This document shows, in pieces, positions 1,047 through 64,000 of a stretch of DNA of 64,000 nucleotides (positions are counted from its first letter, which is position 1; each line of letters starts with the position of its first letter). Both the position numbers and the translations under genes were made by a program. The DNA comes from Thermoplasmatales archaeon SW_10_69_26 (GTDB lineage Archaea > Thermoplasmatota > SW-10-69-26): assembly GCA_003009755.1 (NCBI GenBank), contig PXUB01000029.1, positions 13,946 to 77,945 of the forward strand. The letters are read 5' to 3'. Below the pieces are notes generated by a model. The model saw only the letters and a program-made list of their open reading frames with translations. It ran no database searches and was not told where the DNA came from.

Positions 1047-1262
1047 ATGCGAGCATCGAGGCTAGCGGTATCCCCAAGCCTAGCGATGCTCGCAATTCGG
1101 ACGGGCTCGGCGGTTTCTGTGGTCGCCCGTCCTCTCGCCAGAGACCGCGTTCCCCGTCCCCGAGATCCCCGATGGCGGGCGGTCTCTGGCGATTCGTACG
1201 AACGCCTCGCCTGACGGCTCGCCGTTCGTACTCTCGGCGTGAAGTACCTCGAACGCTGCGGT
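1047..1262 (-). repeat. tandem array of alternating hairpins (two-hairpin module array)
   Basis: Inverted repeats 1048-1058/1084-1094, 1099-1106/1125-1132, 1135-1148/1179-1192 and 1196-1204/1223-1231, with GA and GAA linkers on the minus strand. Confidence 0.85.
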
Positions 1263-1565
1263 CTACCCTTCTCGGTACTTCACGCCGAACCCACCACGAG
1301 GATGGTTCCAGTCGACGCTGCCGGGGGTGCACACGATGTCGCAGGTGCCGCACTCCACGCAGTCCTCGTACTGGAACGTCATCTTGCCGTCGACGAGCGT
1401 GAAGCAGTTCACCGGGCACGAGTACATGCACATCCGGTGGGTGCACGTCTCGCAGATCTCGGGATCGATCGAGATGTGGGCGTGCTCCTCGTCGTCGAAG
1501 TTGTAGCTGGTCGCCCCCAGGCGTGCCTTGATGTCGAACTTCTCGTCGGTTAGTTGCTGGCTCAT
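1263..1565 (-). CDS. fixX: FixX-like 4Fe-4S ferredoxin
   Basis: CETC...CMYSCPVNCF...CVECGTCDIVC...WNHPRGGFGVKY; overlaps the fixC stop. Confidence 0.9.
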   Translation of the reverse strand: MSQQLTDEKFDIKARLGATSYNFDDEEHAHISIDPEICETCTHRMCMYSCPVNCFTLVDGKMTFQYEDCVECGTCDIVCTPGSVDWNHPRGGFGVKYREG

Positions 1566-5016: not shown

Positions 5017-6273
5017 GTGGACGACCTGCTCGATGCCGAGCTCGTGGACGCGATCCGCAAGGACTTCCCCATCCTGGATCGGAAGATGAGGGAGGACCAG
5101 CGGCTCGTCTACCTCGACAACGCAGCGACCTCGCAACGCCCCACGCAGGTCGTCGAGGCGATGCGCCGCTACCAGCAGGAGTCCAACGCCAACGTCCACC
5201 GCGGGATCCACCAGCTCGCCGAGGAGGCCACCGAGACCTACGAGCAGGCCCACGCGGACGTCGCCGCGTTCGTCGGCGCCGAGGGCATGGAGTGCGTGGC
5301 GTTCACGAAGAACACGACCGAGGCGATCAACCTCGTCGCGCAGGGATGGGGTCTCACCAACCTGGAGCCCGAGGACGCGATCCTCGTCACCGAGCTCGAG
5401 CACCACGCCAACCTGGTGCCCTGGCAACAGGTCGCCGACCGCACCGGCGCCGAGCTGCGCCACGTGGCCCTCACCGACGACGGCCGCTTGGACCGGGCCT
5501 CGTTCCACGACCAGCTCGACGAGGACGTGGCCCTGCTCGCCGTCAGCCAGGTCAGCAACGTGCTCGGCACCGTGAACCCGGTCGAGGCGATGACCGAGGC
5601 CGCCCACGACGTGGACGCCCGCGTGCTCGTCGACGCCGCCCAATCCGTGCCCCACATGCCCGTCGACGTCGGCGAGATCGGCTGCGATTGGTTGACGTTC
5701 TCGGGCCACAAGATGTTGGGCCCGACCGGCATCGGTGTGCTCGCGGGGCGCCGCGAGGCGCTCGAGGAGACCGAGCCGCTGTTGTTCGGCGGCGAGATGA
5801 TCCGCCGCGTCACCAAGGACGAGGCCGAGTGGGCCGAGATGCCGTGGTGCTTCGAGGCCGGCACGCCCCCGATGACGGAAGCTGTGGGTCTCTCGCAAGC
5901 GATCGACTACGTGGAACGCATCGGCCGCGAGGCGATCCACGAGCACAGCCGCGAGCTGGCGGCCCGCTGCCAGCGACGCCTCGAGGAGGTCGGCTGCGAG
6001 GTCTACGGGCCCGCGCCCGAGCACCGCAGCGCGCTGGTGAGCTTCAACGTGCCCGGCATCCACCCGCACGATCTCGCCAGCATCATCGACGACGACGGGG
6101 TCGCGATCCGCGCCGGTCACCACTGCGCGATGCCGCTGATGGACCACCTGGGCGTGGCGGCCACCGCCAGGGCCAGCTTCTACATCTATAACACGGAGGA
6201 GGACATTGACGTGCTCGTGAACGGGATCGAACGCGCCGAAGAGGTCATGAGCGTCGAGGAGGACGGCCGGTGA
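5017..6273 (+). CDS. sufS: SufS-type cysteine desulfurase
   Basis: YLDNAATSQ, ANVHRG, FSGHKM (PLP lysine), RAGHHCA; GTG start at 5017. Confidence 0.95.
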   Translation: MDDLLDAELVDAIRKDFPILDRKMREDQRLVYLDNAATSQRPTQVVEAMRRYQQESNANVHRGIHQLAEEATETYEQAHADVAAFVGAEGMECVAFTKNTTEAINLVAQGWGLTNLEPEDAILVTELEHHANLVPWQQVADRTGAELRHVALTDDGRLDRASFHDQLDEDVALLAVSQVSNVLGTVNPVEAMTEAAHDVDARVLVDAAQSVPHMPVDVGEIGCDWLTFSGHKMLGPTGIGVLAGRREALEETEPLLFGGEMIRRVTKDEAEWAEMPWCFEAGTPPMTEAVGLSQAIDYVERIGREAIHEHSRELAARCQRRLEEVGCEVYGPAPEHRSALVSFNVPGIHPHDLASIIDDDGVAIRAGHHCAMPLMDHLGVAATARASFYIYNTEEDIDVLVNGIERAEEVMSVEEDGR

Positions 6274-17665: not shown

Positions 17666-17913
17666 GAAGATCCTCTTTTCGACGGGGCCTAGCCGCCTCT
17701 CGACCGGGGAAAAGGAAAATCGCTGTTAAGGAAAACCCCGGTCGGCAGCGTCCGGAGGCGCCGGTGCCGACCGTCTGGCGCCTCCGGAGAAGACGGATCT
17801 TCGATCCGTCCGAAACGCAGGCCCCAGCGCCGCTGACCTTGGGCGCTGTTGGATCCTCGCGCAGGGCTATGTCCGCCTGACGGGCAACGACACCATCGCT
17901 CGTCGTGGGTCCC
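17666..17913 (+). mobile_element. MITE-like hairpin-rich repeat, family 2 (empty copy)
   Basis: Inverted near-copy of 33002-33346 lacking the 95 bp internal insert; partial copies at 42168-42320 and ~63965-64000. Confidence 0.8.
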
Positions 17914-33001: not shown

Positions 33002-33346
33002 GGGACCCACGCGGGTCCGCTCGCGTCGAAGCTCGTCAGGCGGACATAGCCCTGCGCGAGGATCCAACAGCGTCTAAGGTCAGCAACGCTGGGGTCTGCG
33101 TTTCGGACGGATCGAAGATCCGTTCTCTCCCGAGGCGCCAGACGGTCGGCACCGGCGCCTCCGGACGCTGGCGACCCCAGTTTTCTTCCGGAGATCGGCG
33201 ACACCGTTCGGTCTCCGGAGAGGCCGAAGCTCCGCTTCGGCCGGATTGCGAGGGTTCCTGCCGCCAGGCGAACCCTCCATCTTAACAGCGAAGATTTCTT
33301 TTCCCCGGTCGAGAGGCGGCTGGGCCCCGTCGAAAAGAAGATCTTC
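33002..33346 (-). mobile_element. MITE-like repeat, family 2 (filled copy with 95 bp hairpin insert)
   Basis: Homologous to 17666-17913; extra 33186-33280 consists of three hairpins. Confidence 0.8.
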
Positions 33347-39508: not shown

Positions 39509-40947
39509 ATGCGGGCCTGTGTGCCCGAACATGTTCGGGACCAGCGCGGCCGAGCGGGCCTGCAGACGGGGGCTGTAAGGATAAGAAATGGGGGGGACCA
39601 CCATGTACGCGAAGGGACGCCAGGGCACAAAGGCGAGCAGCTGCCGTGACAAAGCCGCCCGGCGGCGAGTACACAGGCCCTTCGTGGCCTTGGCGATCCT
39701 TCGTGTCCTTCGCGGCCCTGCTTAACGAGACAGTCCTCGCCATCTCCCTGGTCACGGTCGGATGCGCCGGCCCGGCCGGGGAGCAGGTCGAGGACGCCGA
39801 GGCGATGACGCTATCGCCCGGCACCGACGCCGGCATGCCGCTCGTCCTGAACGAGACCAACAACACCGAGGACGTCACCGTCTCGACGAGCGAGGCGGGC
39901 GTCGAGGCCTCCCTGTCCGAGCCCGGCGAGGACGCTCCCGAGGGCTTTGCCGGCTGGCTCACCGTGTCCGCCAGCAAGGATGCCGAGGACGGGCAGCGGA
40001 TCATCGAGGTCAGCGTCGACGACGAGGAGCGCGAGCTCCCCGTCACCGTCGACGAGGCCGACGAGCCGGTCGAGATGGGCCAGACCGCCAACCTCACCTT
40101 CTCGGCTCGCACGCTCGAGGGCGAGCTCGTGCTGACGAACGACGCCAACGCGACCTCGGCCCCGATCCCGCAGGCGGCCTCCTTCCAGGAGCCCCGCAGC
40201 TTCGGTCCGACGTCGGTGCAGATCTCCCAGCGCAGCCAGCTTCCCACCGAGCTCGTGCAGGCGATCAACGGCTCCGAGGTCGGGCACAGCCTCACCGTCG
40301 AGGTGCCCGAGGTCTTCGGTCCCGAGAAGGTCGAGGATCAGACCGCCCGCGAGGAGACGATCGAGCGCGAGACGGAGATCCCCAACCAGCTCGACCTCCC
40401 CCGCCGCCAGGCCCAACAGCTGATCCCCCAGGACGCTCAGGAGGGCGACGAGGTCGACGTGCCCGTCACCCGGGACGGCCAAGGCGTCCCCTACGTGATC
40501 GAGAGTCTCGGTGAGCGCCAGGTGAGCCTCGCCATGGCCCTCGACGAGGGCGCCAACGTGACCCTCTACGAGGCCTGGCCCGACCAGGCTCAGGTGACCA
40601 ACACCACCGGCGAGAACGCCACGATCCAGCTCTCGCCCGACGTTAAGGAAGGCCACACGCTCACCTGGAACGAGAACTGGGGCAACGTGACCGAGGTCAC
40701 CTCCTACACGAACGAGACGATCGTCCTCCGCCACACCCCGGAGATCGGCACCACCTACGAGACGACCGACCGCCGCTCGCAGCAGGCGATCGAGACGGAG
40801 GTCGTCGACCTGACCGAGGATCAGGTCATCCTCGAGCAGACGAACCCGCACCCGCTCGCCGGGCAGACGATCGTCTTCGACGTCACGATCGAGAGCGCCC
40901 AGGACGCGCCTCAACAGCCCCGCCCCCCGCAACGACCGCAGCGCTGA
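39509..40947 (+). CDS. FKBP/SlyD-like lipoprotein, signal peptide interrupted by a MITE
   Basis: Lipobox TVGC; split FKBP fold ending NPHPLAGQTIVFDVTI; ATG 39509 is in frame only if 39573-39733 is removed; alternative GTG 39703 lies inside the MITE. Confidence 0.75.
39573..39733 (+). mobile_element. MITE-like element, family 1, copy 2, inserted in the 5' end of the FKBP gene
   Basis: CTGTAAGGATAAG...CTTAACGAGACAG; 161 bp. Confidence 0.88.
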
Positions 40948-40989
40948 TGCCTCACCCGGGTGAGGCCGGCCGCTCGCGGGTGGCCCCAG

Positions 40990-41190
40990 CGGCCGCCTGC
41001 AGGCTCGGCCACGCGCTCGACGGGATCGAACCCGTGCTCGGCCGCCACCGGCCGGCGGGGGTCGAGGTCGCCTTGACGTCGTAGAGGACCCGCCGGCCCT
41101 CGGGCGTCTGGAGGGACTCGACGGCGACCACGTCGGTCCCGGCCGCCTCCACGATCCGCCGGCCAGTCTCGACGGCTTCCTCGGGCTGGG
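40990..41190 (-). pseudogene. ATP-grasp (RimK-like) C-terminal remnant
   Basis: AVETGRRIVEAAGTDVVAVESLQTPEGRRVLYDV, then frameshifted RPVAAEHGFDPVERVAE. Confidence 0.6.
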
Positions 41191-41200
41191 CGTCCTTGTC

Positions 41201-41494
41201 GCAGTGGGACCCTGGTCTGGGCAACGGGGCTGGCCTGGACAGCCGGTGGCGTCCCGAGACGCGGGGAAGATCGTTCGCGTCTCGGCAAAGGACGACCGCC
41301 GAGCGGTCGTCCGGACAGGCCTCCGCAGGTTCGATCACGAGAGCCGAAGGGGGGTGGCCCGGCTCTCGTGAGAGCCCGAGGGCGGCGAGGTCGCTCGCCT
41401 TCGGGCGGATCGCCAGGGCGCGGCGGCCACGGTTCGGGCCTTGGCGAGAGCAGGTCCGGCCGGAGGGAGGACGTGCGGAATCCTGCCCCCTGCA
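41201..41494 (+). ncRNA. expanded tRNA-Leu-derived copy with 64 bp and 145 bp hairpin inserts (pseudo-tRNA or novel RNA)
   Basis: Removing 41252-41315 and 41335-41479 leaves 85 nt colinear with the tRNA at 41536, with 6 substitutions. Confidence 0.8.
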
Positions 41495-41535
41495 TCGCAG
41501 GGTTCTTCCAACGCGCTGGGCTGGGCGTGCTTGTC

Positions 41536-41620
41536 GCAGGGGTACCCTAGTCTGGGCAACGGGGCTGGCCTTAAGAGCCGGTGGCGCAGGCCTCCGCAGG
41601 TTCGAATCCTGCCCCCTGCA
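41536..41620 (+). tRNA. tRNA-Leu (TAA), no encoded CCA
   Basis: GCAGGGG/CCCCTGC acceptor, CTGGC-CTTAAGA-GCCGG anticodon arm, long variable arm, GCAGG-TTCGAAT-CCTGC T arm, A73. Confidence 0.95.
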
Positions 41621-41664
41621 CTGACGGACTCGAGCCAAGGATGGCGGGGCAGGATGAGAACCCT

Positions 41665-41768
41665 GGTTCGATCCGGAGATTCGGCGGAGAAGGGGATGAA
41701 TCTGCGGAGCGGCCGAACGAGCACCGCGAGTTCGGCCAGAATCCTGCCCCCTGCACTGACGAACTCGA
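41665..41768 (+). repeat. duplicated tRNA 3' end carrying a 69 bp two-hairpin insert in the T-loop
   Basis: GGTTCGA[41672-41740]ATCCTGCCCCCTGCA; 41739-41768 matches 41604-41633 at 29/30. Confidence 0.85.
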
Positions 41769-41901
41769 CGAGGGCCCGCACCCCCTTCCGAGGCCGTTTC
41801 GACGAGAGCATCGCCTCCCGAGGCGGTCTTCTCGGCTGAGACGAGCTGTGGGACAGGACCGAGAAGCGAAGGCTTATGAACGGAGCGCGCGTGGCCCTCG
41901 C

Positions 41902-42096
41902 ATGGCCACCGGCAAGGTCGCGTTCTTCCACGATCGGAAGGGCTACGGTTTCATCGAGACGAGCAGTGCCGACGACGACGTTTTCTTCCACGCGGAGGAC
42001 TTCGACGGCCCCGACCCCGAAGAAGGACAAGAGGTCGAGTTCGAGATCGAGCAAGCGGACCGCGGTCCCCGGGCAGTGAACCTCGAGTTCGCGTAG
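41902..42096 (+). CDS. cold-shock protein
   Basis: GKVAFF..RKGYGFI, DVFFH, RGPRAVN. Confidence 0.92.
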   Translation: MATGKVAFFHDRKGYGFIETSSADDDVFFHAEDFDGPDPEEGQEVEFEIEQADRGPRAVNLEFA

Positions 42097-42167
42097 CGGC
42101 TCCTTCCGTCCGTCTCGGCCTTCCCGCCGGCCCCTCCCGGGTGCCCGGTGCGGCTCCCATCGAACAT

Positions 42168-42320
42168 TTTTCGTTCCGAGGGCCTTGGCGTCTCTCGACA
42201 GGGTGAAAAAGACGGATCTTCGGCAACGAGGAAACCTCCTCGGGAGCGACCCAGCCGCCAGCGTCGCTGGTCTCGGGCGCGGTTGGATCCTCGCGCAAGG
42301 CTCCCTCGGCTTGACGGGCA
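42168..42320 (+). repeat. degenerate family 2 repeat copy
   Basis: Shares CTCTCGAC, GACGGATCTTCG, GTTGGATCCTCGCGCA and TGACGGGCA with the 17.7 kb copy. Confidence 0.7.
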
Positions 42321-42503
42321 GTGGTGTAAGTCCTGGCGTGGGGGGTCCGACGCCGGGAAACGAGATCCTCGGCGAGGAGGGGAACGGGGGTCCGGCGTCC
42401 GTCGGCCGGCGCCTTGGACTTCGTGGAGGACCATCCCCCCGGGCGACCGTCCGCGGCTTCGAGACCCCTCAGGCTTTCATAGCTCGGTTGCGGTGGCTCG
42501 CTC

Positions 42504-62924: not shown

Positions 62925-63890
62925 ATGCGGAACCACCACGTGCTGCTCGCGGCCGCGTTGCTCCTCGTCCCGCTGGCCGGCTGCATCGACGGAGCCCAGG
63001 GCGCTCCCGAGGGGGCGGTCGCGTTCGAGACGATCGACCGAGGCCCAAACTCGGGCATCGAGGAGGAGCGCACCGTCGTCGTCCGCGACCAGGCGGCCTT
63101 CGAGGACCTGTGGGCCGAGCACCAGGCCAACCGGTCCGGCGAGCCCGACGTCCCGAGCGTCGACTTCGACGAGCAGGTCGTCGCGGCGATCTTCAAGGGC
63201 GAGAGCCCCGACGGTTGCCACGGCGCCCAGATCGAGAACGTGACCGGGGACGGGGACCAGATCACCGTGTCGGGCGCCTTCTTCGAGGTCACCGACGCCT
63301 ACTGCACCCAGCAGATCACGCACCCGTTCCACATCGTCGCCTTCGACCGGTACGACGCCGAGACCACGTTCGCCATCCGAGAAGAGACCCGCCAGCAGGG
63401 CAACGGCACCGATGGCGACAACGGCACCGACGAGGGGGCCGCCGACCAGGGCAGCTACACGTGCCGCGAGCCCGGCCCAACGGACGCCTCGACGACCGGC
63501 GCCAACGTGACGTTCGCGACGATCGAGGGGGGCGAGCAGTCCGGCATCGAGCAGCCCTGCGTCACGGTCGCCCGCAACGAGACCGCCTGGCGGGACCTCT
63601 GGCGCGACCACTACCCGACCTCGACGGCCGACGACGAACGCCCCGAGGTCGACTTCGACGAGAGCATCGTTGCGGCGATCTTCAAGGGTGAAAGCCCCGA
63701 CGCCTGCCACGGCGCCGAGATCGAGGAGGTCACCCCCGAGGGCCAGGACCTCGTCGTCCACGGCGTCTTCTACGTCGTCGAGGACCAGGCCTGCGCCGAG
63801 GTCGTCACCTACCCGTACCACATCGTCGAGCTCGAGCGCCCCGAGGGCGGTCTCGTTTTCGACGTCCGCGAGGAGACGCGCCAAGGCTAG
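62925..63890 (+). CDS. lipoprotein with two tandem PrcB-C-like domains
   Basis: Lipobox LAGC; two repeats P.VDFDE..VAAIFKGESPD.CHGA.IE.V...C....T.P.HIV. Confidence 0.8.
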   Translation: MRNHHVLLAAALLLVPLAGCIDGAQGAPEGAVAFETIDRGPNSGIEEERTVVVRDQAAFEDLWAEHQANRSGEPDVPSVDFDEQVVAAIFKGESPDGCHGAQIENVTGDGDQITVSGAFFEVTDAYCTQQITHPFHIVAFDRYDAETTFAIREETRQQGNGTDGDNGTDEGAADQGSYTCREPGPTDASTTGANVTFATIEGGEQSGIEQPCVTVARNETAWRDLWRDHYPTSTADDERPEVDFDESIVAAIFKGESPDACHGAEIEEVTPEGQDLVVHGVFYVVEDQACAEVVTYPYHIVELERPEGGLVFDVREETRQG

Positions 63891-64000
63891 ACTGCCGGCT
63901 GTGCTTGGGTTAGGCTCTCGCCGCCCTCAGGCGGTGAAAGCGCGGAGCCGAGACGAAGGTTCGCCCGGATCGAAGATCCGGACTCTCGCGAGGATCCGCC
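63890..64000 (+). mobile_element. family 3 element (truncated by window end) running into family 2 motifs
   Basis: TAGACTGCCGG start shared with 50057; then CGGATCGAAGATCCG and CGCGAGGATCC as in 33002-33346. Confidence 0.7.

Follow-up and report, generated by a model that had tools for sequence, protein, structure and literature searches.

Small double-hairpin units with exact ends and host-derived arms in the genome of a salt-crust archaeon

The closest described systems in archaea are the PATEs and SMRs of Haloquadratum walsbyi (Dyall-Smith et al. 2011, PMC3119063; this and the other papers cited below are drawn on in part). These are non-coding, carry near-terminal palindromes and have neither inverted terminal repeats nor target duplications. 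Terminal-only forms of PATEs measure 52 bp, the families are heterogeneous and insert into other repeats, and the mode of SMR mobilisation is given as unknown; the ends of PATEs are also those of IS605-type (TnpB/TnpA) transposons, of which the Haloquadratum genome has many (PMC3119063). Here we describe a family of units, each made of two adjacent hairpins and about 50-100 nt long, in a 64,000-nt stretch of DNA from Thermoplasmatales archaeon SW_10_69_26 (assembly GCA_003009755.1, contig PXUB01000029.1), hereafter the window, and in the remainder of the same genome. The window is C29:13946-77945 in our numbering, in which C and a number denote a contig, G000 the present genome and G001-G007 related genomes.

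In bacteria, REP sequences are short, GC-rich extragenic palindromes with few conserved bases, a 3-nt tail and stems that vary by family, and they cluster at gene 3' ends (PMC3733652). Their super-families are tagged GTAG and CGTC, the CGTC class being without a dedicated transposase (PMC3733652; PMC3116915). Palindromic small repeats, well studied in bacteria through REP and RAYT, are barely described in archaea. Imperfect palindromes are known to become perfect by quasi-palindrome correction of the Ripley type. Fold-back inversion at DNA hairpins makes an inverted copy of the adjacent sequence (PMC7467729).

The units differ from each of these in part. Whole units enter or leave precisely at their ends, and neither a target duplication nor terminal inverted repeats (TIRs) accompany them. 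They accumulate behind co-oriented genes, especially those for tRNAs, and spread locally as tandem arrays that carry a copy of the host 3' end. The first hairpin of a unit (hairpin A) often consists of the 3' end of the host gene and a complementary copy of it, placed directly before the dinucleotide GA and the second hairpin (hairpin B). With moderate confidence, we take the units for a lineage-restricted family of small non-coding mobile DNA elements whose hairpins would be recognised in trans and whose host-derived arm would arise by fold-back templating. Full-text searches of the literature turned up neither this element nor hairpin arms derived from a host.

The units are nearest in kind to PATE/SMR and REP/BIME elements yet fall outside both by their defining tests: neither a transposon nor a transposase belonging to them was found, no motif was seen at their target sites, and both a REP tag and inverted pairing are lacking. 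Like PATEs and SMRs, as far as the partial description of those goes, they are non-coding, have hairpins at both ends, lack TIRs and target duplications and reach down to about 52 bp. Unlike them, the units occur in genomes in which neither TnpA nor TnpB was found, and their host groups with Thermoplasmata-type metagenome-assembled genomes (MAGs), whereas the host of the PATEs belongs to the Halobacteria. The inverted copy of the host 3' end, the link to the tRNA T-loop and the head-to-tail A-B arrays are features of the units and not of PATEs in the portion of their description used here. With REP sequences the units share short length, high G+C, few conserved bases, a 3-nt tail, variable stems, a position at gene 3' ends and a tendency to cluster. 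A REP is, in contrast, a single 20-40-nt hairpin with an unpaired tetranucleotide tag, mostly set in inverted, head-to-head pairs, whereas a unit joins two unlike hairpins, is directional and repeats head-to-tail, its conserved bases being paired or lying in the GA linker and the RRA tail. Units with one host-derived arm, an archaeal host and the finding of no Y1 or RAYT gene set the two further apart.

Template switching is alike in that an inverted adjacent copy and a perfected palindrome match the host-derived arm and the way it follows the coding sequence, but it is known as a mutational accident and is not known as the regular companion of a mobile element at a fixed junction (complement, GA, hairpin B). 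The E. coli tyrT/RtT repeats (Rfam RF00391) are likewise tandem repeats behind a tRNA and contain copies of its 3' end; they have, however, no double-hairpin unit or inverted copy, and their match here was below threshold (18.3 bits against a gathering score of 45, E 0.87). A known RNA family was rejected as an identity for the units, since in Rfam 15 only tRNA passes its gathering score, and at E<=1 there were a weak RtT match and a plastid match.

Unit anatomy, family size and covariation

The genome is a 2.82-Mb draft in 49 contigs with 69% G+C, a completeness of 95% and a contamination of 2%. The public runs that contain the window sequence are halite metagenomes, all in the form of DNA contigs. 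A protein encoded in the window is nearest to Thermoplasmata/Thermoplasmatales MAGs (69-74% identity), the next matches, mostly Halobacteriales, reaching at most about 51%.

Read from 5' to 3', a unit runs through TC, stem A, GA, a linker GA, G-nn-CG, stem B and a tail of GAA, GGA or AGA. Hairpin A has 12-15 bp and is flush with the 5' end of the unit (TC...GA), hairpin B has 8-10 bp (G-nn-CG...CG-nn-C), the linker is 2 nt long and mostly GA, and the tail is 3 nt. All six units named in a first-pass annotation of the window fold, as it had proposed, into two adjacent hairpins (z -3.2 to -5.9 against dinucleotide shuffles).

A strict edge-plus-stem grammar served as the first genome-wide scan and identified 59 non-overlapping sites, against 5, 7, 11, 10 and 9 in five simulated first-order Markov genomes; the rate thus exceeds that of simulated sequence. 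A covariance model (R1; 14 seed units, 21 pairs) was then built. A MAFFT alignment of 21 units had staggered 5' ends, hence the use of 14. With 150 of about 6850 candidates scored, R1 gave at least 72 matches in the genome at E<=0.01. Merging model and grammar matches resulted in at least 86 units in 63 same-strand clusters.

Stems differ between copies yet stay paired. In 14 units 98% of cells were paired, 15/21 pairs were changed on both sides, and none of 500 shuffles equalled the observed values. For 63 model-found units from the genome and its relatives, 96.1% of cells were paired against 65.6% in shuffles (0/500 as high), a percentage that is partly circular, the units having been selected by grammars and models that demand pairing. 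Compensatory cells numbered 368 against 107 in shuffles, and sliding the partner column by one reduced pairing in these 63 units to 31-51%. The excess over Markov genomes and the filled and empty sites described below are independent of pairing-based selection and so are not touched by this circularity.

The first-pass annotation had suggested recognition by shape and edge bases, and this agrees with what is conserved, namely the structure and a small set of positions. In hairpin A, pair 1 is U-A in 56/61 units and pair 2 is C-G in 56/61; in hairpin B, pair 1 is G-C (58/60), pair 4 C-G (57/60) and pair 5 G-C (58/58). The linker is GA in 45/63 units and the RRA tail is GGA in 27, GAA in 18 and AGA in 6. 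In the fold these bases cluster around the point where both ends of the unit meet. The two ends (TC... and ...RRA) share no inverted repeat beyond 2-3 nt, and A types and B types are freely recombined among units. Across units 93.7% of pairs are Watson-Crick and 2.4% are G.T; the alternative of an RNA module, also raised in the first-pass annotation, is left without direct support by this scarcity of G.T pairs. In unit 1, the base at window position 41286 is a C that keeps pair 2 of hairpin A from forming; contigs of three other halite runs have a G there, with which the canonical pair is restored.

The family is restricted in its distribution. In the GTDB class of the host, which comprises 21 species genomes in total, units were found in six at E<=1e-5 (50, 18, 13, 8, 3 and 1 matches), and one more genome of the phylum had one match at E<=1e-4. 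None occurred in two genomes of the sister genus, g2. Single matches inspected in other families show the full grammar, and one relative carries five units head-to-tail without a spacer.

Exact filled and empty sites

The sole tRNA gene called in the window (ARAGORN, Rfam) is that for tRNA-Leu(TAA), around which lie the following features.

41183..41500, + strand: dead copy of tRNA-Leu(TAA) in tandem with the gene, including about 20 nt of the leader and split by units 1-3
41252..41315, + strand: unit 1, 64 nt, two hairpins, in the variable loop of the dead tRNA-Leu copy; R1 62.6 bits
41335..41409, + strand: unit 2, 75 nt, first of a tandem pair in the T-loop of the dead copy; 63.7 bits
41410..41479, + strand: unit 3, 70 nt, head-to-tail with unit 2, weaker hairpins (z -3.2); 29.7 bits
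41536..41621, + strand: intact tRNA-Leu(TAA) (ARAGORN; Rfam RF00005, 50 bits), which serves as reference for the empty site and supplies the 3' end that is copied
41646..41671, + strand: inverted copy of the tRNA 3' end, a 10-nt perfect complement of the 3' strand of T-stem and acceptor, then a short B-type hairpin ending in the first half of the T-loop
41672..41740, + strand: unit 4, 69 nt, with the half T-loop before it and the tRNA 3' end, copied in direct orientation, after it; 56.5 bits
41741..41775, + strand: second direct copy of the tRNA-Leu 3' end and trailer, 34/35 match

With 41252-41315 and 41335-41479 removed, the upstream copy matches tRNA-Leu(TAA) and 20 nt of its leader without gaps at 96/103 positions, and removal of 41672-41740 leaves a gap-free 34/35 match of the downstream copy to the 3' part of tRNA-Leu and its trailer. 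The dead copy and the tRNA were compared by script after unit removal; pairwise MAFFT left the large gaps unopened. The claim that three inserts had entered sequences whose uninterrupted form is also in the window, with no flanking base lost, is borne out by these excisions. For the site of unit 1, the intact tRNA is the empty paralogue.

In the dead copy the acceptor stem contains a mismatch and position 37 is a pyrimidine; neither ARAGORN nor Rfam calls this copy. At window positions 41232-41238 it also has four consecutive anticodon-loop changes with the flanking stems intact, which is odd for random decay. Contigs from the halite samples of another study have the same filled arrangement, with units 1-3 in the dead tRNA copy (41170-41581), and the arrangement is therefore not an assembly artefact. 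Of the syntenic tRNA-Leu(TAA) loci, those of G001 and G004 are plain, and those of G003 and G005 repeat the architecture seen here with units of other sequence.

Six further units of the window bear on what follows.

1096..1192, - strand: 97-nt unit of a subfamily with dispersed copies; copy homology ends at the unit ends, -1/+1 against C45 and -1/-2 against the copy at C29 6767 (BLAST)
1193..1288, - strand: unit whose hairpin A takes its 5' arm from the final codons of a fixX-like ferredoxin gene, the complement following the stop codon, then GA and hairpin B
17751..17814, + strand: unit with paralogous empty sites elsewhere in the genome, among them a gap-free one at C17 82969-83026; 50.8 bits
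33102..33165, - strand: oppositely oriented unit in the composite repeat that holds the unit at 33187; 48 bits
33187..33245, + strand: 59-nt unit inside a composite repeat of about 320 bp; 53.4 bits
63960..64000, - strand: partial unit in a copy of a TIR element, its 5' end cut by the end of window and contig; 38.8 bits

To search for empty sites, the 40-nt flanks of each of the 86 units were joined and the genome was queried with them. Gap-free empty paralogues were found for at least 11 units in at least seven site families, with the junction exactly at TC...RRA and no base duplicated or lost. As an example, the joined flanks of the unit at C12 53-104 match C25 172167-172244 at 100% over 78 nt. 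The clearest case is a TIR element of about 330 bp, of which there are 9-10 empty copies and at least eight filled ones, in which a 51-54-nt unit occupies a single position; across the junction, identity is 100% over 78-80 nt. This set may reflect a single insertion followed by spread of the host element; the filled and empty sites outside the TIR element are independent. In the 97-nt subfamily, dispersed copies are 78-81% identical across the unit and homology ends within 1-2 nt of the unit ends. Neither target duplications nor TIRs were found at the filled and empty sites. The first-pass proposal of a non-autonomous multi-copy element with exact insertion and head-to-tail arrays thus extends to at least 86 units, at least 11 of them with exact empty paralogues.

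MITEs, the small transposable elements with inverted repeats, were rejected as an identity for the units, there being no TIRs or target-site duplication; the separate element of about 330 bp does have inverted ends. That element has dozens of BLAST matches (among them window 63887-64000, C2 1-350, C12 1-150, C32 1-200, C34 1-270 and C14 16700-17000), often at contig ends, and probably breaks the assembly. The composite repeat of about 320 bp (window 33022-33340; C9 35380-35700 and 39154-39477; C32 73669-73975; also on C8) consists of two divergent units and a T-rich stretch.

Host-derived arms and arrays behind genes

Units are concentrated behind tRNA genes. Twenty-two of the 86 are found downstream of a same-strand tRNA gene, at no more than 800 nt from it, where fewer than one is expected (that space makes up <1% of both strands), and about 15/57 tRNA genes are affected by hand count. 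Over the 63 clusters, the feature on the 5' side of the unit is co-oriented in 46 and opposed in 14, the gene calls for these placement counts coming from a crude GC-frame filter. A co-oriented gene or tRNA hence precedes 46/60 clusters that have a neighbouring feature, an extragenic 3'-end location.

Behind many tRNAs the parts follow a series: the tRNA 3' end (T60 to discriminator), a short trailer and the reverse complement of the 3' end, often through the T-loop, then a short B-type hairpin that ends in the first T-loop half, a unit, and the second T-loop half with the tRNA 3' end. The series recurs two or three times in tandem. The T-loop insertions reported in the first-pass annotation are therefore real, including that at 41672, but form only part of a larger tRNA 3'-end architecture, a tandem pattern with inverted and direct copies. 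Within 160 nt downstream, 14/54 tRNAs in G000 have 10 nt or more of their own 3' end repeated in inverted form, as do 7/26 in the unit-bearing G002, G003 and G005, against 0/31 in G001 and G004, the unit-free sister genus of the same family. The upstream control gave none in all three genome groups.

Two loci show variants of these arrays. At C1 123200-123782, at least four partial 5' copies of tRNA-Ser(TGA) stand upstream of the gene, each followed by reverse-oriented units at the D-loop position, and this array adjoins a tyrosine recombinase gene and tRNA-Glu. The 4.4-kb island at C2 33058-37680 encodes a tyrosine recombinase and is bordered by tRNA-Gly(CCC) with hairpins and by a second 3'-end copy with the same hairpins; it is probably an integrated element within a hairpin array.

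The same host-derived arm occurs at protein genes. At the fixX-like gene (1193-1288, - strand) the stop codon is followed by a perfect complement of 15 nt, to which GA and hairpin B are attached directly. Across the genome, perfect stems of 11 bp or more made with the last 45 nt of coding sequence were found at 26/2095 gene 3' ends, compared with 8 at 5' ends and 4 at mid-gene positions, and in at least 14 of these 26 the stem leads immediately into the beginning of a hairpin B. The arrays here are tandem whole A+B units with the gene-end copy, for instance five 90-nt periods on C19. In all, about a quarter of the tRNA genes and several genes for proteins are affected by the host-derived arm.

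Three orthologous gene ends, fixX and two others, allowed the arm to be followed over time. At each the hairpin is present in unit-bearing genera and absent from the unit-free sister genus g2, and the downstream arm in a given genome is complementary to the coding sequence of that same genome. Where the coding arm differs between genomes, the complement differs to match, in 4/4 cases at fixX (G000 vs G002) and in about five at each of the other two loci, read by eye; as exceptions, the fixX hairpin has one mismatch in G002 and three in G003. Hairpin B keeps its outer bases at these gene ends and varies inside. These structures are therefore old and orthologous, still paired while the genes diverged to about 80% identity. 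Perfect stems with few G.T intermediates would fit templated copying of an arm better than slow compensatory selection on RNA. The compensatory change read from the window units in the first-pass annotation accordingly stands as regards pairing, which is kept with strong covariation, but much of it is probably templated copying of one arm from the other and not slow selection of point mutations.

Mechanism, mobilising enzyme and rival explanations

These data allow us to hypothesise how the units move. An enzyme that reads shape and a few bases would act where the two unit ends meet. Movement would pass through single-stranded DNA, the hairpins being recognised by a trans-acting nuclease or transposase, and the complementary arm would be written and kept perfect by fold-back or quasi-palindrome template switching while the hairpin is replicated. 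That the units persist, and do so in this orientation, suggests that the upstream transcript tolerates the resulting 3' hairpins or benefits from them, and a role at the RNA level could exist in addition to mobility. Exact filled and empty sites, defined ends and covariation, in a genome with no recognisable transposase for the units, point to a route of DNA movement outside those known, and if the arm is made by templated synthesis, a process otherwise known only as an accident of mutation would here take place regularly and at directed sites. A bolder proposal, possible but in our view doubtful, is that hairpin B with its GA/GAA edges is the core of an undescribed kind of archaeal mobile element, in which hairpin-primed synthesis, as part of insertion or maintenance, writes the inverted 3' end of any upstream gene or tRNA directly onto the element, the hairpin corrects itself and follows the host sequence through evolution, and the enzyme belongs to no known transposase family.

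A number of results weigh against mobility of this kind. PF01797 (Y1 HUH transposase), PF07282 (TnpB) and PF00078 have no match in the 95%-complete genome, and no units lie beside its IS110 or DDE genes (R1 scan of the loci). By eye, no shared target motif was seen in the left flanks of 13 sites, a small sample; their ends include GGTC, TTCT, CAAG, AGCG, TTCC, CTCG, CGCG, CATG, GGCG and TCGA. Compared with the local folds of the empty sites, insertion points show no consistent placement in loops. Contigs of four runs from another study (covering 40600-42400) contain no filled/empty polymorphism and none that joins across a unit, so that current mobility is not demonstrated; two odd joints in these contigs, a 132-nt skip (41755/41888) and a strand change, are single low-depth contigs off the unit ends. 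Each empty/filled pair could in principle be a precise deletion. The co-orientation behind genes and the better folding of the sense strand would also fit a role at the RNA level, and the single-strand and fold-back steps are ones that we only infer.

The first-pass annotation had placed the mobilising enzyme outside the window. None is present in the window, as it said, and none was recognised in the genome either, be it a Y1 transposase, TnpB or a reverse transcriptase. PF04986 has no match in the genome, but it has none in any control genome, so this carries little weight. The other mobility genes of the genome are two and a half of the IS110 family, one DDE transposase and three tyrosine recombinases (PF00589), each of the last adjoining a tRNA gene and two of them adjoining units. 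The IS110-family (DEDD) genes lie at C3 88341-88769, C2 62978-63406 and C41 8005-8124, two of them at contig ends; this family has no match in G001-G004 or G006 and one in the unit-free G007. A look for a transposase flanked by units had also been proposed; on C9 the region between two inverted unit pairs encodes a BNR-repeat protein only, with no transposase. Two C9 copies of the composite repeat flank this coding region, which measures 3.6 kb. Two GIY-YIG matches were found in the genome, one in a 595-aa open frame and the other in a small stand-alone protein without a unit nearby.

It is unlikely, but worth setting out, that the units are PATE-like, end-only derivatives of an IS200/IS605 transposon, moved by single-strand 'peel and paste' through a Y1 HUH enzyme whose gene is missing from the drafts. 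Two hairpins, no TIRs, no target duplication and sizes down to 51-54 nt agree with the PATE description as far as it is drawn on here (PMC3119063), and the filled and empty sites are exact. Against this, PF01797 has no match in the genome, and PF07282 has none in G000 or in 19/20 relatives (draft MAGs), so in 20/21 class genomes, the sole TnpB-positive genome, G004, being unit-free. The left flanks of the 13 sites have no tetra- or pentanucleotide in common by eye. The hairpins abut the unit ends (0 and 3 nt), whereas those of IS608-type ends are subterminal. The unit copies, moreover, diverge far more than 'homogeneous' PATEs, a separation made by description.

Similarly little probability attaches to the view that the hairpins are host RNA elements, acting in 3'-end formation, termination or stability, that were multiplied by local duplication and are not transposable DNA. 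Several features would suit it: the co-oriented clusters (46 vs 14), the structure kept across genera at three orthologous gene ends, and an asymmetry between strands, with the sense strand folding better than the antisense in 70/86 units and G.T exceeding A.C by 29 to 12, although the way in which the units were found biases both of these measures. Hairpins can also terminate transcription in Haloferax, according to a paper drawn on in part (PMC7237163). Local duplication of RNA elements does not account for exact filled/empty pairs in unrelated contexts, including the dead tRNA and other repeats, nor for dispersed copies with sharp homology boundaries or the presence of both orientations within composite repeats, and the pairs are overwhelmingly Watson-Crick.

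Very improbable is an origin of the arrays as debris of tyrosine-integrase integration and excision at tRNA 3'-end attachment sites. The three PF00589 genes beside tRNAs, two of them also beside units, invite the comparison, as does the 4.4-kb integrase island between tRNA-Gly(CCC) and the second copy of its 3' end, one case of integrase-type direct tRNA 3'-end repeats flanking an integrase gene. Such a process yields direct repeats only and leaves the inverted copies, and units of 60-100 nt with conserved edges, unexplained; the same architecture stands at protein-gene ends, units lie inside repeats that are not tRNAs, and three integrase genes face at least 86 units. Scarcely credible, finally, are bulge-helix-bulge introns spliced from a functional multi-intron tRNA: the inserts do lie in the variable loop and T-loop, positions at which non-canonical archaeal introns occur, but the junctions, read by hand, do not allow a 4-bp helix flanked by a pair of 3-nt bulges, hairpin A begins at the first inserted base with the bases before the splice points unpaired, the host copy has its acceptor mismatch, pyrimidine 37 and no ARAGORN or Rfam call, and most units are outside tRNAs.

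Whatever their route of movement, the repeats break assemblies, create pseudo-tRNAs and can mislead the annotation of tRNAs and introns. A distinct, AT-rich hairpin repeat was also seen on C5 at about 5250-5700 (- strand), where four copies with a period of about 124 nt stand behind a gene end and do not follow the double-hairpin grammar.

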